From Candidatus Hodarchaeota archaeon (lineage in GTDB: Archaea; Asgardarchaeota; Lokiarchaeia; Sigyniarchaeales; SOKP01), in contig JBHLJY010000003.1 in NCBI GenBank assembly GCA_048887225.1, forward strand, positions 64,001 to 128,000: a DNA stretch of 64,000 nucleotides. The letters are read 5' to 3'. The translations under genes and the position numbers were made by a program. The number at the start of each line of letters is the position of its first letter. Within the stretch, counting starts at the first letter, position 1. Of the stretch, positions 19,315 to 43,050 are shown piece by piece. The notes beneath the pieces were generated by a model that did no database searches, was not told the origin of the DNA, and worked only from the letters and a program-made list of their open reading frames with translations.

Positions 19315-19959
19315 TTATCGCCAAAAGTGGATTATTGGAGAAAAAGTTTCACCTAACCAATAAAAAAAAGATATCCAATAAATACAAGTTAAACCTAGAT
19401 ATAAAAGTCCAAAAAGGGCTCCAAATAGAAATCCAAATAATACATCAGTTGGGAAGTGAGCACCCAATATCAATCGAGTTATTGCCACAATTACATCAAG
19501 TATAATAAAAATTAATAAAATTATCCAATTCTGGAAGAAAAAAGCAAATATTATCCCAAAAAACAATAAAAAAGTAACATGTCCAGAAGGAAATGATTTA
19601 TCTTCTCTAATTAATTCATCGTGCTGTTTGACTCCTTCTTCTTCTAATTTTACATAAGGTCGGTTTCTTTTTACAATTTTATAACGAATAATAATGTGAA
19701 GTATTATGCTTTGAATAAATCCGCCAGTAAATAAAACAAAAAGATAATAATCTTTAGTAATATAACCATAAATAGCCCAAATAAGCCAAATTAAACCCCA
19801 AAATTGCATATTGGCGATGAATGAGAAAATTTTAGCAAACAATATAATTCTTTTTCCTTTAAGAAATTTATTTTTATAAAGTTTAAGAAATGTTTTTTTA
19901 TCCCACTCATTAATTCTTTGAATTATCCCTCTTGAAGAAGTCTTTTCTGATAATATCAT
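19315..19959 (-). CDS. PAP2 family membrane phosphatase
   Basis: KRNRP, SFPSGH, TRLILGAHFPTDV. Confidence 0.92.
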   Translation of the reverse strand: MILSEKTSSRGIIQRINEWDKKTFLKLYKNKFLKGKRIILFAKIFSFIANMQFWGLIWLIWAIYGYITKDYYLFVLFTGGFIQSIILHIIIRYKIVKRNRPYVKLEEEGVKQHDELIREDKSFPSGHVTFLLFFGIIFAFFFQNWIILLIFIILDVIVAITRLILGAHFPTDVLFGFLFGALFGLLYLGLTCIYWISFFYWLGETFSPIIHFWR

Positions 19960-30500: not shown

Positions 30501-30634
30501 ATCGTTTTAAGTTTTAATTCTGCCATTTAAAATTTATCATCTTTCAATCTCTTTTTAGAAAAATCTATAAGGAATCTAATATTTTTAATTTTACCTAATT
30601 ATCAATAATAATGTTCAACTTTTATCAATTTATT

Positions 30635-31744
30635 ATGAGTTTTAAATTGGAAGACGTTAAAGGTTTAGGCAAAAAAGCGGGAAATCTTAAGGATGCCGGA
30701 ATAGATTCAGTTGAAAATTTAGCAAATGCTAAAGAAGATGATTTAATAAAGATTAAAGGTATTGGTAAAGCATCTGCCCAAAAGTTTATCAATAATGCAA
30801 AAAAATTATTGAAAAGTAAAACTAGCGAAGATATGTATGAAGAAAAGGTAGTTTCCGAAGAAATTAATGAGGAAGAAAAAAAAGTTCAAGAAGAACATAA
30901 AAGATTAGAGGAAAAGAAAAGGAATTTAGAAGGAAATACGGTTGAGAAAAATGATTTCATTCTTGTAAAGGTAACAGGGAGAACACAAAAGGGAAAAATC
31001 TTTCAAGTTTCTTCTGTAGACGATGCAAAGAAAGCTGGTATCTATGACGAGAAAAAAGAACATCTTTATACACCTGAATTTGTAATTGTAGGAACACCTG
31101 GATTTTTAAATGAGGGTCTTATGGAAACCATTGAGAATATGAATTATTTTGAAAAAAAATCGGTGCGAATTCCGCCAACAAAAGCTTTTGGTAAACGGGA
31201 TCCCACAAAAATTGAAAGAATTGGTATTGCTAAATTTAGGAGAATGAATGATGGGAAGAAACCAGAAATCGGACAAGATTTTACAAGGAAGGATGGTCAG
31301 AGAGGTACGGTAACTAATATTTTACAAGGTAGGGTTATCATAGATTATAATCATCCTTTAGCTGGGCAATCACTTGATTACAATATTGAAGTAATTGATA
31401 AAATCGAAGATTTTAACAAAAAGATTGAACATTTTATGATATCAAAAGGAATTCCTAAACAAAATGTTTCAGACTTTAATATAAATTACAATAAGGATGA
31501 TCAATCAATTGAATTTACAATCCCGAAACAGTTCTTGTTCCAAAATTTGGCATTATTAAAATTTAGTCTAGCAATAGATTTACAAACTCATATGACAGAT
31601 GAAATCAATGATGTAAAGTTTATCGAAATTTACGAAAAAATGCCAATACCACCAACGCCGTCAGAATCAGTAATGGAAAAAATTGAAGAATATGATAAAG
31701 AACATGAAGAACAAAAAAAAGATCAGACAGATAATAAAAAATAA
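30635..31744 (+). CDS. FKBP-type peptidyl-prolyl isomerase (archaeal long type) with N-terminal helix-hairpin-helix domain
   Basis: LEDVKGLG..LIKIKGIGKASA (HhH2); IPPTKAFGKRD, DYNHPLAG; ATG at 30635 preferred over 30611. Confidence 0.85.
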   Translation: MSFKLEDVKGLGKKAGNLKDAGIDSVENLANAKEDDLIKIKGIGKASAQKFINNAKKLLKSKTSEDMYEEKVVSEEINEEEKKVQEEHKRLEEKKRNLEGNTVEKNDFILVKVTGRTQKGKIFQVSSVDDAKKAGIYDEKKEHLYTPEFVIVGTPGFLNEGLMETIENMNYFEKKSVRIPPTKAFGKRDPTKIERIGIAKFRRMNDGKKPEIGQDFTRKDGQRGTVTNILQGRVIIDYNHPLAGQSLDYNIEVIDKIEDFNKKIEHFMISKGIPKQNVSDFNINYNKDDQSIEFTIPKQFLFQNLALLKFSLAIDLQTHMTDEINDVKFIEIYEKMPIPPTPSESVMEKIEEYDKEHEEQKKDQTDNKK

Positions 31745-31750
31745 TTATAT

Positions 31751-32755
31751 TTAATCTAATTCACACTTAAGTATTAATTCGTGCTTTTTAATTTCCTTCT
31801 CTTTTTTAAATTCTAATTTTATTTTATAAAATTCTTCTCGTTTTTGTTCAAGTTCAGTTGAGATTTTTGCTGATTTACCTTTTTTTTTTAAAAGTTTCTT
31901 TTTTGCTTTCTTGTACGCTTTTTTAGCCTTCTTATATTGTTTGTTCTTCATCTTATAAACTTTGTATTTCTCATTGATTTCCTGTCTATAGCTTTTAGAT
32001 ATCTCTTTAAGTCCAATACAGTCTAATTGTTGCTTAAATTTTTTGAATGACTCGAAATTAACTACAATCATACCTAATTTTCTGGCAGGTACCAAGTTTT
32101 GAATCTTATCATCGATATATATAACCTGTTTAGCTTTAGCATCTAATTTTTTCAAAACATATTTATATTTATCTATCTTAGGCTTGATAAGACCAATCTC
32201 ATTCGAGAGAAACACGTAATCAAATGAATCATAAAATCCTCTTAATTCATTCGATTTAGCATATACATCATAAACGTTAGACATTAAGCTCACAGTATAT
32301 CCAGCACTATGAAAAGTTTCAACAATATTCTTCATATCAGAGGATAATTTTGTTAATTTAGTATGTAATTCGAACCATAATTCTAGATAATAGTCCAAGT
32401 TAACTTTTTTGGCTGGTAAGGCTCCATTATGTTTTTGATAAGGATAATAATATCTATCACTTATTTTTTCTAGAAATTCTCGTGAAGTTAATCGTCCAGA
32501 GCTTAATTTTCGTTTAAGTTTTTTAATGTAAGGATTATCTATTCTAGGTATTTTAATCTTTAAATCGCTTTCAATACTATCTAGTAGATTCTTTAAAACG
32601 AATGATCTCTCAGACATTACACCACCAAAATCAAATATTATATGCCTAATCTTATATAACTTAACTTTTTGGCGTCCAAACATTTTTGATGAAGAATTCT
32701 TATAAGATTTATTGCTATTTTGAAGACTCATTCTCTTTATATAATAATTACTCAA
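31751..32755 (-). CDS. HAD-IA phosphatase (YihX-like) with Lys-rich C-terminal extension
   Basis: IFDFGGV, LMSN, SNEIGLIKP, YIDD; about 80-aa poly-Lys helix. Confidence 0.85.
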   Translation of the reverse strand: MSNYYIKRMSLQNSNKSYKNSSSKMFGRQKVKLYKIRHIIFDFGGVMSERSFVLKNLLDSIESDLKIKIPRIDNPYIKKLKRKLSSGRLTSREFLEKISDRYYYPYQKHNGALPAKKVNLDYYLELWFELHTKLTKLSSDMKNIVETFHSAGYTVSLMSNVYDVYAKSNELRGFYDSFDYVFLSNEIGLIKPKIDKYKYVLKKLDAKAKQVIYIDDKIQNLVPARKLGMIVVNFESFKKFKQQLDCIGLKEISKSYRQEINEKYKVYKMKNKQYKKAKKAYKKAKKKLLKKKGKSAKISTELEQKREEFYKIKLEFKKEKEIKKHELILKCELD

Positions 32756-33726
32756 TATATTTTAATTCTTGAAACTAATTCTTTCTTTTTCAATTTTGCT
32801 TTTTTATATTCAGCTTTTTTAATCATATAATCTTCATATTTTATTTCAAGATTAGTTTTCTTTTTTGAGGAGTCCTTTTTATTTTTTAAATAGTAGTTTT
32901 TTGCCTTCTTATATGCTCTTTTAGCCTTACGAAATTCTCTCTTTATTTCTTTATATAGTTTGTATTTGTTTTTAATTTCACGTCGAGATAACGAGCTTAT
33001 ATCTTTTATGCCAAGTTCTTTTAATTGCTCTTTAAATTTATCTATAGACTCAAATTTTAGGACATTCATACCCAATTGTTTAGCAGGAATGAGATTTTTG
33101 AGTTTATTGTCAATAAAAATGCAATATTTGGGTTTTGTTTTCAATTTTTTTATTACATATTTATATTTTTCTAAATCTGGTTTCCTAAATCCAATTTCGT
33201 TTGATAAAAAAATAAAATCAAATAAATTATAAAATCCTTTAAGCTTATTTGATTTTACATGAACATCAAAAGTATTTGACATTAAGCTAACCGTATATCC
33301 TGCTTTATGTAGTTTTAGGACAATTTCTTCCATGTCCATAGATAAATGGGAAAATTTAGAATATAATTGAAACCATAATTCTAAATAATAGTCCAAGTTA
33401 ACTTTTTTGGCTGGTAAGGGTCCATCATTTTTCTTATTTGGATAATAATATCTCTTAAGAACTTTCTCTATAAAATCACGTGATGTGATTATACCCGCGC
33501 CTAATTGCCTAAACAATTTTCTATAATAAGAATCTTCTGATCGAGGGATTATTATATTTAAATCGTTTTCTATTATATCAAATAGATTCTTAATACTATG
33601 AGTCGGTTTTATGAGTACACCTCCAAAATCAAAAATGAAGTGTTCAATTTCATATAATTTAACTTTTTGAAACCCGAATACTTTTCGAATAATATCTTCT
33701 TCTTGGTCTTGAAAGCTCATTATCAT
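32752..33726 (-). CDS. HAD-IA phosphatase (YihX-like) with Lys-rich C-terminal extension; tandem paralogue
   Basis: IFDFGGV, LMSN, SNEIGFRKP, FIDN; near-identical DNA block (LPAKKVNLDYYLELWF) shared with the neighbour. Confidence 0.85.
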   Translation of the reverse strand: MIMSFQDQEEDIIRKVFGFQKVKLYEIEHFIFDFGGVLIKPTHSIKNLFDIIENDLNIIIPRSEDSYYRKLFRQLGAGIITSRDFIEKVLKRYYYPNKKNDGPLPAKKVNLDYYLELWFQLYSKFSHLSMDMEEIVLKLHKAGYTVSLMSNTFDVHVKSNKLKGFYNLFDFIFLSNEIGFRKPDLEKYKYVIKKLKTKPKYCIFIDNKLKNLIPAKQLGMNVLKFESIDKFKEQLKELGIKDISSLSRREIKNKYKLYKEIKREFRKAKRAYKKAKNYYLKNKKDSSKKKTNLEIKYEDYMIKKAEYKKAKLKKKELVSRIKIY

Positions 33727-33759: not shown

Positions 33760-34551
33760 TTAAATTTCCTTTTTTAATTTTTTAAACTCTCTCAAAATCA
33801 GATTCCCAATTTTAGAAACAGGATCTCCTCCACATTTCCAATTTGTAAACTCTGGAAATGATCCCGGATCAACAACAAACAATTTACCAGTATTTTTTTC
33901 TTTAACAATGTCTAAATGTCCGAATAATAGATTATAACTATTTTTCCATTTTAAAATAATTTCTAGGATATCATTAGGCGTATCTCTTTTTATCATATCA
34001 GAATGTTCATTTTTTAAAGGAAGTTTTTCTAAAGTACATATTTCATTATCAATAAAATAAACAGTATAATGTATGCCTTCAATAAATTTTTCTAAATATA
34101 AAATTTCATCTGAATTTGCTTCAAAATCTCTGAAGGTGTTTATAATTTTAACGCCTCTGCTTCCAGAACTCGTAATTGGCTTTAAAAGTAATGGAAAGTC
34201 GTTTTCTGTAAGATTTTTTATCAGAGCCTTTAATGCTCCGTAATAAATATGTGGATATAATAAACCGGCATTTTTTATTAGTAAATAAGCTTCTAATCTG
34301 TTTCTGTGTTTATAACTAATTTCTGGATTTGGTATAACTGGAATATTATTTGCCTCAATATAATATCCCGCATAGATAAAAGGTATTTGATGTTTAGATT
34401 TTAATATGTATAAATCATTCTCAAGTAATGACTCATCTATGCATAGATTTTCCTTTGTATAGATTTTAACACGATATCCTTTACTTTCATAAAATATTTT
34501 TAATTTCCCGGTAAAATATCCTGTTCTTTTAGATAATATTCCTATTTTCAT
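33760..34551 (-). CDS. ATP-grasp protein, ITPK1-like (degenerate C-terminal motif)
   Basis: FPLLLKP..SSGSRGV, EKFIEG, FGHLDIV...FVVDPGSFPEF. Confidence 0.7.
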   Translation of the reverse strand: MKIGILSKRTGYFTGKLKIFYESKGYRVKIYTKENLCIDESLLENDLYILKSKHQIPFIYAGYYIEANNIPVIPNPEISYKHRNRLEAYLLIKNAGLLYPHIYYGALKALIKNLTENDFPLLLKPITSSGSRGVKIINTFRDFEANSDEILYLEKFIEGIHYTVYFIDNEICTLEKLPLKNEHSDMIKRDTPNDILEIILKWKNSYNLLFGHLDIVKEKNTGKLFVVDPGSFPEFTNWKCGGDPVSKIGNLILREFKKLKKEI

Positions 34552-34564
34552 GTTATAATTCTAT

Positions 34565-35392
34565 TTATTGTTTTTTAGCTTGTTCTATTAAAAATTCCGC
34601 AAATATTTTTGGTCCATTTTCAATATAATTAAAATTTGGCATGGAATTTATGTCTGTTAGATAATAAGTCCCATCTTTTGATTTTAAAAAGTCTAAAGAT
34701 GAAGCCTTAAGGTCTAGAATTTTTATTGCTTTTAATGCGATTTCTTTTAATTCAGAAATCTCTTGGATTTTTCTTCTGGTTTCCATTTTATCTGGGTTTA
34801 CTAAAAATGGAATTTGTTTATAGAAAAACAATTTATCTCCAAAACCATATATTTTATATTCCCACTTACTTTTAACGAATTTCTGGTAATAATAATATTG
34901 ATAATCCTCCTCTCCTCCATTAACTTCTTTAATTGCTCTCTCATCACTGATCTTTAGATGTCCATTTTCTTTTAAAATATTTGGCTTAAAAGTGTATGTT
35001 TTTTCGTCAACTATATTCTTTATAATATAATCTTTAAATGGGGCTTGACAAGTTGAGGGAAATAATGAAAAATCAGGTACACAGATACCAACTTTTCTTA
35101 ATAAAATACTATTTAAAAATCTATGTGATGCTAGCCAAATTGCTTTTGAAGGATTAATTACGGGGATTGAAGTTTCGTTTTCAATCATTCGAGCAAGAGA
35201 AACCAAAAATTTTCCTTTACCCTTAACAAAAAATAGATCTTCGTCAAATTCTAAATTTTTATTTTTAAGTAAGTAAGAATCTTCTACATATAGTTTTACA
35301 TTAGATTTAGATTTTAAATATTTTAATAAATCTGATATTTTATATTTCAAATGAAATTTATCAATAATGATTCCAATTTTTGGTTTTTTCAT
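34565..35392 (-). CDS. ATP-grasp protein, ITPK1-like inositol phosphate kinase
   Basis: PVINP, QKFV..EYKIYGFG, SLDFL...YLTDINSMPNF. Confidence 0.72.
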   Translation of the reverse strand: MKKPKIGIIIDKFHLKYKISDLLKYLKSKSNVKLYVEDSYLLKNKNLEFDEDLFFVKGKGKFLVSLARMIENETSIPVINPSKAIWLASHRFLNSILLRKVGICVPDFSLFPSTCQAPFKDYIIKNIVDEKTYTFKPNILKENGHLKISDERAIKEVNGGEEDYQYYYYQKFVKSKWEYKIYGFGDKLFFYKQIPFLVNPDKMETRRKIQEISELKEIALKAIKILDLKASSLDFLKSKDGTYYLTDINSMPNFNYIENGPKIFAEFLIEQAKKQ

Positions 35393-35597: not shown

Positions 35598-36515
35598 ATG
35601 TCTAAAAAAATCATTGTTGGTTCGATCTGTAATCGAGATCTCGAAGTTTTTAACGAGATCAAGAGATTTTCTAAGATTCATTATAGAATAAAGTTTGTTA
35701 ATCTCATAAAAAACGATTCTTCTTTTTCTATCAAATATTTCAAAAAAAAATTGAAAAAATACAATATAGATTTCTTAATTGTTAAATTATATTCAGAGGA
35801 ATCAAATCATAAAGTATATGACGCAATTAAATCATATGCATCTAATATCCCCCGATTGAATAGTTTAAAATCTGTTCAAACATGCGAGAGCCGAAAGGAA
35901 ACATTTAAATTAGTAGAGGAAAAATGCAAAAAACTAAAGATTCCTAAATCTTTTTATTCAATAAACGCTGCGTTTGAAGCAGTATCGAATGGAACGCCTT
36001 TAATTATAAAATTAGATACACATAATATAAGAAATTTATCTAAATATGATCGAATTCTTGGTGTCGCGAAATCTAATGATGATTTCGTTAAGTTAATTAG
36101 AAAATATGATGTAGAGAATAACACTTTATTTTTCCAAGAATATTTAGGTAAACATGATGATATTTATAAAGTGTATGTAATTGATCGTTATGTACAAACA
36201 ATCACATCTCAAAATCTTTTATTACAACATAAGTTTTCCCCTTTAGAATTAGTACACCTTAGAGCACCGATAGAAAAAGAATTTAAAAGACAAATTTTAA
36301 GATTAGGGCGAAAATTTGGTATGACAATCTTCGGTGTTGATTATGTCTTAAAAGATGACATTCCCTATATAGTAGATATTAATGATTTTCCTAGTTTTAG
36401 ATATATCCCCGAGGCTATAAGCATGATATCTGATTATATATACAAGTTCTGTGTTGCGAGACAAACTCTTACTAAGATTCCAATGAGATTAAAAGTAAAA
36501 ACTTATACTATGTAA
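35598..36515 (+). CDS. ATP-grasp protein, ITPK1-like inositol phosphate kinase
   Basis: PLIIK, FQEYL, IYKVYVI, IFGVDYV...IVDINDFPSF. Confidence 0.8.
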   Translation: MSKKIIVGSICNRDLEVFNEIKRFSKIHYRIKFVNLIKNDSSFSIKYFKKKLKKYNIDFLIVKLYSEESNHKVYDAIKSYASNIPRLNSLKSVQTCESRKETFKLVEEKCKKLKIPKSFYSINAAFEAVSNGTPLIIKLDTHNIRNLSKYDRILGVAKSNDDFVKLIRKYDVENNTLFFQEYLGKHDDIYKVYVIDRYVQTITSQNLLLQHKFSPLELVHLRAPIEKEFKRQILRLGRKFGMTIFGVDYVLKDDIPYIVDINDFPSFRYIPEAISMISDYIYKFCVARQTLTKIPMRLKVKTYTM

Positions 36516-36542: not shown

Positions 36543-37634
36543 TTATCGCGATCTTTTTCCTTGGATAAATCTTACAAGGCGTCGTTTCGCCCTAAAATCT
36601 TGGAGCTGTTTTGGAGGGTGTTTCATAAAAAAAGAACTTGCTGAATGTAATACGCCTCCAATCTGTCGATCTTTAGCTATTTTTGATATTCGAATGCAAT
36701 CTGCAATAATACCTGCTGAATTATTCCCGTCTTCAACAAACATGGTGATATCTACTCTGACAGGAGCGCCTCCAAAAATACGTCCTTCTAATCTCATATA
36801 TGCTTCTTTTTGATTTTTTAAGAATGGAATATAATCAACAGCAGAAATTTGACATTCAACAGTATCTTTATTTTGTAACTTAGCAACGACTGCCTCAGTT
36901 TTGGATTGGCGTTTTCCTTCTTCATAAATTAGCTCCCCGTTCGGTTTAGGTGTTAGAAGGTTCAAGAAATCGCTACATCCGCCCCAATCAAGCTGTATTG
37001 TTCTATCCAATATCGCTCCACGCATTGGAAAAAGATTTGCTAAAGCTCTATGAATAATTGTCGCACCAACCTGAGATTTCACATCGTCTCCAATTAAAGA
37101 AAGTCTTAATTCTTCTGCTTTTTGGACTATTTCTGGATCTTTCGCTACATTTGATGGTATTCCACACACAATACAGGCTCCTGCATCAAGAGCAGCCATT
37201 GCATAAAATTTCACAGCTCTATGGGCCCCAGTTGGTAGAAGAATTACAGCGACATCAACACTTCGTTCTCTTATTTCTCTAGCAATATCAGCTTCTTTTT
37301 GGTTATTATCAACAGGCACAATATTCTTTATGTTGCTATCCAAACCATCCATTATAGGACCTTTAATGACTGGAGCATTTAGAAAATCTGGACGATATAG
37401 TTCCATATTACAATTTGGTTCAGCAAATATGGCTTCACTAAGATCTTTTCCAACTTTGTTTGCGTTGACTTCTATGCCCAATACAAAACTTATATCATTG
37501 ATGCTATATTGTATTATTTCTGGTAGAATTCCTATAATTTTATCTGGATTTCTTTTATAGTTTTCGATTCCTTGGACAAGAGCAGATGCAACATCTCCAA
37601 TCCCTATCAGACAAACATTAATTTTATTTGTCAT
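36543..37634 (-). CDS. ino1: myo-inositol-1-phosphate synthase
   Basis: GIGDVASALVQG, LPTG, GDDVKSQVGAT, DFLNL, SKT, NSAG, FMKHPP. Confidence 0.93.
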   Translation of the reverse strand: MTNKINVCLIGIGDVASALVQGIENYKRNPDKIIGILPEIIQYSINDISFVLGIEVNANKVGKDLSEAIFAEPNCNMELYRPDFLNAPVIKGPIMDGLDSNIKNIVPVDNNQKEADIAREIRERSVDVAVILLPTGAHRAVKFYAMAALDAGACIVCGIPSNVAKDPEIVQKAEELRLSLIGDDVKSQVGATIIHRALANLFPMRGAILDRTIQLDWGGCSDFLNLLTPKPNGELIYEEGKRQSKTEAVVAKLQNKDTVECQISAVDYIPFLKNQKEAYMRLEGRIFGGAPVRVDITMFVEDGNNSAGIIADCIRISKIAKDRQIGGVLHSASSFFMKHPPKQLQDFRAKRRLVRFIQGKRSR

Positions 37635-40957: not shown

Positions 40958-42106
40958 ATGAATAGTAGAGAGAGAGTAAAAAAGGCGTTCCATTTCGATA
41001 AACCCGATAGAGTACCTATGTCTCAAATGAACTTAAAAACAGATTTTTTTCCAGTCCATCAATATCATCCTAAATCTTGGCAACCACAAAATTATCCTCC
41101 TCACGTAAGAGGGGGTGTTGAAAAAATAACTAAAATAACTTATAGAAAATTCGTATATAATTGGAAAAATACAATGAGAAAAGAAGCAGGATATTCTAAG
41201 AAGTGGTGGAAAAATCCTCATGAGAGTATTGATGAATGGAATACTATTTGGAAATCTTCAGGAACAGAAAGTGCTGATGTAACAAAAGGTCATCCCTTTA
41301 AAGGTTTTCTTCAAGATGATTGGGATAAAATTAATGATTACAAAATCCCTGACGCATCAAATCCGGAGCGATATAGGATGATAAAAACAAAAATATGGAA
41401 ATTATTAGGTAAGAATAGATATACGGTTGGCGAAATGGGAGCTAATGGTCTATTCAATCAATGTAGTCAAATTAGGGGTTTTACTAATCTTCTTATTGAC
41501 TTTGCTAGACATTCACAAGAAGTAGATCAATTAATCAATAAAATACTTCCTTTTTACCTGATTCAAATTGAAAAATTTAAAGGATATTATCCAACACTAG
41601 ATTCAATTATTATCGCAGATGATTTAGGAACTCAAAAATCGCCGTTCATCAGCCCAAGAATTTTTCAAAAATTTTTTAAAGAACCTTATAAAGAAATCAT
41701 AGATTTAACTCATGAATTAGGAATGGATTTTATTCTACATTCTTGCGGCCAAATTTTCGAATTAATGCCAGATATAATTGATATTAATGTTGACGTGTTT
41801 GAATTTGACAGCCCCCATATGACTGGAGTCGAAAATTTTAAAAAATTTGCAAAGGAACGAAAGGTGGCATTCTGGCTTTCATCAAATATTCAGAGTACAT
41901 ATCCTCTTGGAACACCTGAAGAAGTAGAAGAAGAAATAAAACATTACATTAAAGAAGTGGGTAATAATGAAGGAGGATTAGCTATTTATGAATATATGTC
42001 AAATAAGGTTTTAAGGACACCAAAAGGAAATATTATATCACAAAGAGAAGCTACTCTTAAATGGGGTAATTACAATGAAAATGGTTTTATTGATTGGTTA
42101 GCTTAG
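40958..42106 (+). CDS. Uroporphyrinogen decarboxylase / MtaA-like methyltransferase family protein
   Basis: MNSRERV...PDRVP, DEW, RGF, ADDLGTQ, LHSCG. Confidence 0.8.
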   Translation: MNSRERVKKAFHFDKPDRVPMSQMNLKTDFFPVHQYHPKSWQPQNYPPHVRGGVEKITKITYRKFVYNWKNTMRKEAGYSKKWWKNPHESIDEWNTIWKSSGTESADVTKGHPFKGFLQDDWDKINDYKIPDASNPERYRMIKTKIWKLLGKNRYTVGEMGANGLFNQCSQIRGFTNLLIDFARHSQEVDQLINKILPFYLIQIEKFKGYYPTLDSIIIADDLGTQKSPFISPRIFQKFFKEPYKEIIDLTHELGMDFILHSCGQIFELMPDIIDINVDVFEFDSPHMTGVENFKKFAKERKVAFWLSSNIQSTYPLGTPEEVEEEIKHYIKEVGNNEGGLAIYEYMSNKVLRTPKGNIISQREATLKWGNYNENGFIDWLA

Positions 42107-42159
42107 AATCGTTATTCTATCAAAACCTTAAGAAGTTAAATAATATTTTATTCCTTAAT

Positions 42160-43050
42160 ATGGCAAAAAAAATAGTTCTTTCCGCCAAAAAAGAACATGA
42201 TGTTATTATAAATGTTATAAAGAAGCTAAAAGAAATCCAAAATATTGATTTAATTTTACATGATCCAACTGAAGATTTTCTTAACTTAGAAGATATGCAT
42301 AATCAATTTGGAGATGCTGATTTTATAATAGCAAAAGTCGCAAGCGATTGTTCTATTGATTTACTCCATTTTGCTAAACTTTACAAAATTCCTACATTGC
42401 ATGATATTGACACAGTTCTAATGTGTAAAAATAGAGTTGCTCTTGACCATGTTTTAAGAAGAATTTTTAATAAATATTCGAAAGAGTTAGATAAATTTTT
42501 ATTACCAAAATCTTGGACGCATTCCTTATTAAATATAAATAGATTTAAGGAATGGGCTTCTTCACGATTGCCAATAGTTATTAAAAGTCATTATCAACAC
42601 GATAAATACAATCGATTTAATTTCTTGGTTCGGGAAATAGAAGAAGTTAATAAATTTTGTAAATTATATTCAAATTTTTTATACTATGATGTATATATTC
42701 AAGAATTTGTGGAATGTGATGGAATAGAGCTAAAAGTATATGTGGTTGGAGATAAAGTATTTGGAATTAAAAGAGAAAATCCAATTTACATTTTTTTAAG
42801 AGATAAACTCATTTCTATTGATGTTGAGACTATAGAAAGAGTCAAATTTAAAGTCCCAGATGATATGAAAAATTTAGCTAAAGTTCTTGCAAAAGAACTA
42901 AATTTAAAACTATTTGGGTTTGATTTAGTTAAACCTCTTAATCAAGAGGGATATTTTCTAATTGATTTAAACGATTTTCCTGGTTTTAGGGGTATTAACA
43001 ATATTGATAAAGTAATAGCTGACTTTATTAAAAAATATTTAAATCGATGA
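42160..43050 (+). CDS. ATP-grasp protein, ITPK1-like inositol phosphate kinase (best-conserved copy)
   Basis: LPIVIK, QEFV, LKVYVVGD, LKLFGFDLV...FLIDLNDFPGF; ATG at 42160 preferred over TTG at 42094, which overlaps the upstream gene. Confidence 0.85.
   Translation: MAKKIVLSAKKEHDVIINVIKKLKEIQNIDLILHDPTEDFLNLEDMHNQFGDADFIIAKVASDCSIDLLHFAKLYKIPTLHDIDTVLMCKNRVALDHVLRRIFNKYSKELDKFLLPKSWTHSLLNINRFKEWASSRLPIVIKSHYQHDKYNRFNFLVREIEEVNKFCKLYSNFLYYDVYIQEFVECDGIELKVYVVGDKVFGIKRENPIYIFLRDKLISIDVETIERVKFKVPDDMKNLAKVLAKELNLKLFGFDLVKPLNQEGYFLIDLNDFPGFRGINNIDKVIADFIKKYLNR

Follow-up and report, generated by a model that had tools for sequence, protein, structure and literature searches.

Predicted HAD phosphatases with a conserved basic helical arm at an archaeal ino1/ATP-grasp locus: candidates for inositol-phosphate metabolism

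Introduction

For a long time inositol polyphosphates were taken to have arisen with the eukaryotes; the chief exception among prokaryotes is the ino1/ITPK1 locus of Loki-archaea. In the parts of the published description covered here, Lokiarchaeum encodes four ITPK1 homologues, arranged as two pairs that flank two inositol-phosphate synthase (IPS) genes, and a Lokiarchaeum homologue yielded IP6 in yeast (Desfougeres et al. 2019, PMC6900528). Plant ITPK4, as described in excerpts of PMC7614388 (PDB 7pup), fuses the ITPK kinase to an N-terminal HAD-like domain that is capless (C0), lacks the catalytic motifs and showed no phosphatase activity. A kinase pathway requires a phosphatase to become a cycle or a signal. 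Here we describe two adjacent genes for predicted HAD phosphatases with Lys-rich C-terminal tails, called HADup and HADdown, at positions 31,751 to 33,726 of a 64,000-nucleotide stretch of DNA from a Candidatus Hodarchaeota archaeon (contig JBHLJY010000003.1); this whole stretch is referred to below as the window. Judged from sequence and gene order, the tailed HAD is a candidate phosphatase or polyanion-handling component of archaeal inositol-phosphate metabolism.

Results

HADup and HADdown are arranged head to tail on the minus strand. HADup (32752..33726, minus) starts at an ATG and encodes 324 residues with motifs I FDFGGV, II SLMSNT, III RKPD and IV FIDNK; its database copy starts at Met3. 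HADdown has motifs I FDFGGV, II SLMSNV, III IKPK and IV YIDDK. The two proteins are 58% identical over 286 residues without gaps, with the similarity continuing into the C-terminal tail, and Pfam HAD_2/Hydrolase spans residues ~30-230 of each, leaving ~85-95 C-terminal residues without assignment. The original prediction placed a 4-nt overlap between the two open reading frames. This is correct for the open frame of HADdown extended to a TTG at 32755 (31751..32755, minus; 334 residues from the TTG), but not if translation starts at the ATG used by the orthologues. HADdown orthologues at loci L001 and L002 begin with an ATG 17-19 residues ahead of a conserved FGxQKV, and the matching ATG in the window, preceded by AAAGAGA, is at 32731, 24 nt downstream of the TTG. 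The probable start of HADdown is therefore ATG 32731 and not TTG 32755, which gives a protein of 326 residues (31751..32731, minus) and a 20-nt spacer to HADup.

The core of both proteins is that of a HAD phosphatase. The YihX-like core named in the original prediction was recovered when a family profile was compared with solved structures, YihX being the top match (E 8.7e-14, over motifs II-IV) and the N-terminal phosphatase domain of soluble epoxide hydrolase (sEH-N) the second. In a single-sequence search of solved structures, sEH-N came first (E 5e-10), followed by AstC and YihX. An AlphaFold2 model of HADup, built on 41 family sequences (pLDDT 82, pTM 0.73), has a Rossmannoid core with a C1 cap, and Foldseek matched it with probability 1.00 to sEH-N (E 4.5e-11), YihX and BT2542. 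These matches cover ~210-240 columns, and the tail is covered by no solved chain. Both proteins passed TIGR01509 (HAD-IA variant 3; 40.7 and 36.5 bits, cut-off 29.4). They aligned to TIGR02247, the model for epoxide hydrolase N-terminal domain-like phosphatases, over the whole core at scores below its cut-off (74.6 and 67.3 versus 125.4 bits), and they were also below the cut-off of the YihX equivalog NF006991 (50.2 and 43.5 versus 295 bits). Similarity to pyrimidine 5'-nucleotidases in NCBIfam was weak (E 1e-9 to 1e-8, far under the cut-offs), and the Pfam scan of HADup and HADdown gave no match to PF00459 (inositol monophosphatase). On these profile scores, 'YihX-like' is a fair description of the fold and subgroup, and HADup and HADdown are not members of the YihX family.

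All four HAD motifs are present in both copies (FDFGGV, SLMSN[TV], K-P and D-[DN]). The motif I nucleophile, Asp33 of HADup (codon 33628..33630, minus), is invariant in 41 sequences, and [IL]FDFGGV[LMI] is found in 120 of 122 family sequences, with one sequence truncated there. SLMSN[TV] and K182-P183 are likewise invariant. Motif IV differs between the two paralogues as originally noted, FIDNK in HADup against YIDDK in HADdown; the family has DD at this site in 116/122 sequences and DN in 6/122, the Asn of HADup being residue 207 (codon AAT, 33106..33108, minus). The Asp+2 position of motif I is Gly throughout the family (Gly35 in HADup), so that the DxD general acid/base is absent, and members at L087 and L092 have Ala at the position after the +2 Gly column (FDFAGV). 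Since all seven tail-less relatives compared here also lack Asp+2, its absence is a subgroup trait and no sign of decay. Taken together with the model, both genes are predicted to encode Mg-dependent HAD phosphatases with a C1 cap, belonging to the YihX/sEH-N subgroup.

Compared with the seven tail-less relatives, which end no more than about 5 residues from the 'LGI' ahead of the arm, the family has gained an N-terminal extension of ~25 residues, a cap insert and an arm of ~80 residues. The N-terminal extension is modelled as a helix (5-17) and a strand (19-23), both of which ordinary relatives lack. The cap insert region of HADup (residues 94-122, YYPNKKNDGPLPAKKVNLDYYLELWFQLY; 33361..33447, minus) is conserved in the family and rich in Lys, Tyr and Trp, and the cap string YYYP.QKKDGALPPKKVN has 6-14 more residues than the tail-less relatives. 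The shared string G[PA]LPAKKVNLDYYLELWF, to which the original prediction had drawn attention, is present in both proteins and is gapped by the same 6-14 residues in the relatives, which makes 'cap insert' a fair name.

The arm of HADup comprises residues 245-324 (32755..32994, minus), with a helix at 248-281, a turn, a second helix at 287-315 and a strand at 318-322, and has a net charge of +23; that of HADdown (82 residues; 31754..31999, minus) has a net charge of +19. Both Lys-rich strings quoted previously were found in these tails, which contain 26 Lys in 80 residues (HADup) and 29 in 82 (HADdown). Lys makes up 8.0% of a 10,791-residue sample of other window proteins, and the Lys content of the tails is far beyond this AT-rich background. 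Across the family, the arm has a median net charge of +28 over 81 residues, with 48% Lys+Arg. The pLDDT of the arm block was about 73-97, mostly 89-97. Helix 1 has a seam with 4-3 heptad spacing (I251, Y255, Y258, Y265, A268, Y272, A275, Y279/L280), helix 2 has one hydrophobic residue per heptad (F293, Y300, Y307), and nearly all remaining positions are Lys or Arg, with one Glu per heptad; mean arm hydrophobicity is -0.5 to -0.7. In the model, the arm is thus an antiparallel helical hairpin zipped by a Tyr/Ala/Phe seam, its exposed faces all basic, and we infer that the last strand (318-322) pairs with the N-terminal strand, returning the arm to the core.

The consensus of the arm, LR.EIKKKYKKYKK.KKEYKKAKKEYKKAKKEYLKKK.KSLKRR.EFQ.KR..Y.KKK.EYKKEK.KKK.EL..KI, is conserved position by position in 31/31 tails and across 122 sequences. 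These alignments and the AlphaFold2 model bear out the earlier view of the tail as a real, conserved and strongly basic helical module. Low-complexity drift in an AT-rich lineage, which was considered as its origin, is rejected in view of the Tyr/Ala seam, the invariant residues, the near-constant length and the confident model; all family loci are AT-rich (27-33% GC), and no GC-rich member exists for an independent check of drift.

When a profile of the 31 tails was run against 1.84 billion representative proteins, it gave 10 matches at E<=0.001: four with the HAD core, one tail-only fragment, one unrelated repeat protein and four in which tail pieces follow short unrelated N-termini. The last four (P0122, P0126, P0127, P0129) are 113-135 residues long, with one N-terminus resembling a winged helix, and are probably fragmentary or chimeric gene calls. 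The arm was found on no other type of protein among the 1.84 billion representatives, and on this sequence evidence it is a family hallmark, as opposed to a mobile domain that other known proteins share. Pfam searches of the 31 tails (E<=1) gave weak matches to OmpH/Skp PF03938 in 23/31 (best E 0.0006), which are probably compositional. SPX (PF03105) was absent both from the whole-protein Pfam matches (E<=0.01) and from the 25 families shown for the 31 tails (E<=1); no known polyanion-binding family in Pfam matched the tails or the whole proteins, and a look-up of the tail in the ESM Atlas gave no usable match.

A search of 5.8 billion clustered proteins returned 379 matches to the tailed HAD; among the best 120 of these, 117 are 314-334 residues long and 72 are exactly 322. 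In a scan of 400 Asgard genomes, the gene was present in 84, all belonging to one GTDB family (83 of 134 genomes plus the window genome), while none of the 265 genomes in 32 other families of the phylum had it. The NCBI names of the carriers (Prometh-, Thor-, Hod-, Heimdall-, Hermod- and Odinarchaeota) would make the family Asgard-wide, a distribution contradicted by the placement of 84/84 carriers in the one GTDB family. How widely the tailed HAD is spread cannot be read reliably from the deposited names. A collection of species representatives yielded 27 loci at 54-70% identity, and the next-best loci, from other archaea and bacteria, are at <=35% identity and have no tail.

At most of these loci the tailed HAD is the last gene of an operon close to ino1. 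In the window, HADup directly follows two ATP-grasp genes on the same strand, AG2 (34565..35392, minus; 275 residues), the first gene of the operon, and AG1 (33760..34551, minus; 263 residues), with intergenic gaps of 13 nt (AG2-AG1), 33 nt (AG1-HADup) and about 20 nt (HADup-HADdown). Divergent from the operon is a third ATP-grasp gene, the ITPK1-like AG3 (35598..36515, plus; 305 residues; weak PF05770 match), followed by ino1, encoding myo-inositol-1-phosphate synthase (36543..37634, minus; PF01658, E 3.5e-21), and further on by a clear ITPK1-like kinase gene (42094..43050, plus; 318 residues; PF05770, E 3e-14, above cut-off). Against this last gene, hhalign gave 98.6% for AG3, 96.5% for AG2 and 87% for AG1. 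The order of the locus is ITPK1-like / (MFS) / ino1 / AG3 (opposite) / AG2 / AG1 / HAD / FKBP (opposite) / radical SAM / ThuA. The HAD gene is directly downstream of AG2-AG1 homologues, on the same strand, at 25 of the 27 loci; ino1 is part of the locus at 21 of these 25, and at the remaining four the contig stops short of it.

Co-occurrence of the tailed HAD with inositol and ITPK genes had been suggested as a check, and it came out in favour of a link: besides the gene order at the 25 loci, AG1 accompanies the tailed HAD in 82/84 carriers. The two carriers without AG1 are 69% and 83% complete. AG1 is present in 103 of the 135 genomes of the GTDB family, against 84 for the tailed HAD. Both are absent from the genera labelled g6, g8-g10 and g13, while g2 has AG1 in 0/5 genomes and the tailed HAD in one. 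Gene order and co-occurrence in these genome sequences thus support an inositol link of the tailed HAD.

Other features of the neighbourhood were as follows. The convergent neighbour (30611-31744) is an HhH + FKBP-type isomerase with a long acidic/basic linker and is syntenic in nearly all loci; its stop codon is 6 nt from that of HADdown. A URO-D-like gene (40958-42106) overlaps by 13 nt the start of the ITPK1-like gene, which begins with TTG, and GH2 and MFS genes are situated between this pair and ino1. At L005:3618-7105, three consecutive ino1-like genes (34%, 41% and 80% identity to the window ino1) precede the ATP-grasp genes. A single in-frame stop (TAA/TAG/TGA) was seen within the AG1 match in eight genomes (G174, G189, G235, G242, G243, G247, G253, G267), six of which are HAD-less g12 genomes; it may reflect operon decay or a sequencing artefact.

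Tailed-HAD paralogues also have other neighbours. At four loci in genus g5 (L021:1666-4393, L085:5534-8302, L086:732-2523, L091:5580-8497), whose members form one clade with 100% support in the SH-like approximate likelihood ratio test (SH-aLRT), the paralogue immediately precedes, in the same orientation, the genes for PhoU_div (DUF47) and a PHO4/PiT phosphate transporter, a neighbourhood that fits a phosphate-supply role. A second paralogue clade is found at four loci in four genera (L087:5156-11755, L088:5826-11392, L092:2984-9049, L093:2210-8743) in the order radical SAM / EMC3-TMCO1-like / zinc ribbon / GtrA-like / HAD / long coiled-coil / gelsolin, with two HAD copies inside the block at L093. 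At one further locus the tailed HAD follows pyruvate phosphate dikinase. Catalytic motifs, cap insert and arm are all retained by the members in these contexts, and the enzyme probably carries out the same chemistry throughout.

We also considered the origin of the tandem pair. Judged from coordinates, tandem pairs are present in 4/9 genomes of the window's genus (G000, G167, G168, G174). In the tree, the copies from the window, L001 and L002 fall into an upstream-type clade and a downstream-type clade; both have 99-100% SH-aLRT support and branch in the same internal order, which indicates that the duplication predates these three genomes. The six DN sequences are all close to HADup. In the nearest relative, G172 (AG1 93% identical), an upstream-type gene reading FIDNK lies alone between AG1 and the FKBP gene, and in G169 an upstream-type gene, again alone, reads FIDDK. 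The ancestral state suggested by these sequences is a single HAD gene, last in an AG2-AG1-HAD operon beside ino1 and ITPK1-like kinases; the pair in the window would be a within-genus duplication of which either copy could later be lost.

The original prediction that the pair forms an active/regulatory heterodimer, with a DD catalytic copy and a DN regulatory one, is not supported by these data. The genes are adjacent and probably co-transcribed, their motif IV differs, and both clades are kept in three genomes with matching branching orders. A single copy is nevertheless the usual arrangement, tandem pairs being confined to one genus, and the DN form occurs alone in G172 while the HADup-type gene of G169, also alone, has DD. 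A regulatory subunit dependent on a DD partner would hardly be expected to serve as a lone DN copy, and the other catalytic residues of the DN copy are all intact. In HAD chemistry generally, Asn can still ligate Mg. We consider such a heterodimer very improbable.

Discussion

The reading we put forward is that the tailed HAD dephosphorylates a small, highly anionic product of the ino1/ATP-grasp locus, with the arm capturing the polyanion or docking the enzyme and with phosphate released. We offer this tentatively, as a distinct possibility for which we would not claim probability. The substrate would most likely be an inositol poly- or pyrophosphate; the arm would serve as an electrostatic antenna or docking site for capture of the polyanion, or as an anchor that holds the enzyme on a polyanionic surface; and the phosphate would be given back to the cell. 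The tailed HAD is the sole phosphatase consistently encoded in the AG2-AG1 operon, and it is a plausible candidate for the missing phosphatase of the inositol pathway. Canonical inositol monophosphatase (IMPase) is encoded by a single-copy gene on another contig of the genome; with this housekeeping enzyme encoded elsewhere, the tailed HAD is not simply the inositol monophosphatase. Neither PPK1 nor PPK2 was found in the 98%-complete genome, which makes polyphosphate a less likely ligand. Motif I without its general acid is one reason for including pyrophosphates among the proposed substrates.

Several observations weigh against this proposal. By general HAD enzymology, a motif I without the Asp+2 general acid would favour activated phosphates such as anhydrides or anomeric phosphates over simple inositol monoesters. 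Some members, with catalytic and cap residues unchanged, are found at loci that have no inositol genes. The inositol link draws on gene order among kin genomes, which are not independent of one another, and a block of ~10 genes that includes unrelated FKBP, radical-SAM and ThuA genes is equally syntenic, so that part of the conservation may be inertia or inheritance. Furthermore, AG1 is present without the tailed HAD in 21 genomes. All six of these that were examined, all from a subclade of genus g12, cleanly lack the HAD, with AG1 abutting the convergent FKBP gene; their loci (L094-L099, in G249, G268, G267, G233, G270 and G258) have kept ITPK1-like, MFS, ino1, AG3 and AG2. The nature of AG1 and AG2 adds to the doubt. 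Against the PDB, their profiles matched best to ArgX/LysX, PurK and RimK (E 1e-6 to 3e-5) and to ITPK1 just at E 0.14-0.6, and an AlphaFold2 model of AG2 (pLDDT 88) is about equally near LysX/ArgX (TM 0.70), PPIP5K2 (0.72) and maize ITPK1 (0.67). On profiles and model, AG1 and AG2 may not be inositol kinases. NCBIfam names do not discriminate here, as the clear ITPK1-like gene also matches RimK models.

Other readings of the enzyme and its arm share parts of the same evidence. Among the nearest relatives of solved structure are the lipid-phosphate phosphatase domain of sEH and the HAD domains of AstC and drimenol synthase, which act on isoprenoid diphosphates, and one paralogue clade adjoins GtrA-like and EMC3/TMCO1-like membrane proteins in four genera. 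The tailed HAD could on this basis be a peripheral-membrane lipid-phosphate phosphatase, its arm lying on the anionic membrane and its substrate being a polyprenyl phosphate or a phosphorylated lipid head group, for example in archaetidylinositol phosphate derived from the ino1 product. Inositol lipids receive their head group from inositol-1-phosphate, and the parts of a 2022 review covered here call the phosphatidylinositol phosphate/archaetidylinositol phosphate (PIP/AIP) phosphatase 'unidentified' (PMC9385802). The arm, however, has no free hydrophobic face, its hydrophobic residues being used in the inter-helix seam; none of the genome's four CDP-alcohol transferases is encoded on this contig; and the HAD is deleted in genomes that retain ino1. 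The family is also limited to one GTDB family, yet the same parts of that review describe inositol lipids as widely distributed among archaea (PMC9385802). We give this explanation a small but real chance. The window also contains a PAP2-family lipid phosphatase gene (19315-19959), 12 kb from the locus, as another candidate for lipid-phosphate chemistry. A nucleotidase or nucleic-acid-associated phosphatase is unlikely in our estimation. Such an enzyme would serve phosphate salvage, with the arm binding RNA, DNA or ribosomes and the phosphate coming from nucleotides or nucleic-acid ends. By general analogy, a rod with 48% Lys+Arg and a charge of +28 does look like the basic RNA-binding arms of coiled-coil type; the paralogue beside PhoU_div and PiT suggests phosphate supply, and there is the weak, far sub-threshold NCBIfam similarity to pyrimidine 5'-nucleotidases. 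Neither Pfam searches of the 31 tails nor the ESM Atlas matched the tail to any known nucleic-acid-binding family, and this reading leaves the dominant position behind the ATP-grasp pair near ino1 without explanation.

Two further readings concern what the arm is for. If AG1 and AG2 are LysX/RimK-type ligases, as their best sequence matches (ArgX/LysX/RimK) would have it, the arm could be a docking or substrate element for them, the tightly linked genes encoding one complex or modification system. The arm is retained, though, in contexts without AG1 and AG2, it has no conserved acidic C-terminus of the LysX/RimK target kind, and AG1 and AG2 are themselves basic (isoelectric points 8.9 and 9.3); we regard this as improbable. 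The other reading draws on SPX domains, the eukaryotic sensors of inositol phosphates (InsP) and inositol pyrophosphates (PP-InsP), in which helices offer Lys and Tyr residues to polyphosphate ligands and which are linked to the homeostasis of phosphate. The arm would be an independently evolved prokaryotic counterpart of such a Lys/Tyr surface, binding the InsP/PP-InsP made by the neighbouring kinases and gating the phosphatase. We are rather doubtful of this. Were it true, a Loki-type archaeon would already couple inositol-phosphate levels to phosphate supply, as the PhoU-PiT paralogue hints, and archaea akin to the ancestor of eukaryotes would provide a functioning forerunner of InsP-based signalling of phosphate status.

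Returning to the proposal of a phosphatase for a product of the ino1/ATP-grasp locus, nothing about its fold or chemistry is out of the ordinary, and the ino1/ITPK1 locus was published in 2019. Within the portions of the literature searched, we located no description of the tailed HAD family, its arm, cap insert or N-terminal extension, or its place in the operon. Where the covered parts of PMC6900528 mention phosphatases, these are other enzymes and none of the locus, and the supplements to that paper (Fig. S1, locus maps) could mention the gene. The arm is among the most highly charged structured modules attachable to an enzyme, and it offers a handle on the polyanion these archaea make. Should the substrate be unrelated to inositol, the family would still be a clean case of a generic HAD core gaining a docking module in one lineage.

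Among known systems, the common C1-capped HAD-IA fold is shared with E. coli YihX, an alpha-D-glucose-1-phosphate phosphatase (PDB 2b0c, 8pne, 8pno). As the original prediction stated, stand-alone YihX is about 200 residues long and tail-less, the solved chains having 199-207 residues; it also lacks the N-terminal extension and the cap insert, and identity to it is about 20%. The lipid-phosphate phosphatase domain of sEH (EPHX2) and TIGR02247 are closer by other measures, with the domain giving the best single-sequence and Foldseek matches and TIGR02247 aligning end to end with the core, but the tailed HADs have no epoxide hydrolase domain, and the arm has no counterpart there. Long basic helical hairpins like the arm are known from the 'tentacles' of Skp/OmpH, from which it differs in having no trimerisation core and no periplasm to work in. 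The likeness to SPX is one of function only, a helical bundle there and a two-helix hairpin here, without a sequence match. The Lokiarchaeal ITPK1/IPS cluster, as presented in the covered parts of PMC6900528, is the same kind of locus, with ino1 flanked by ITPK1-like ATP-grasp genes, and the tailed HAD is dispensable in some of the genomes that carry such a locus. Plant ITPK4, in the account excerpted from PMC7614388, provides an independent physical link between a HAD domain and an ITPK; in the archaeal locus the HAD is a separate protein, with a C1 cap, intact motifs and a basic arm.

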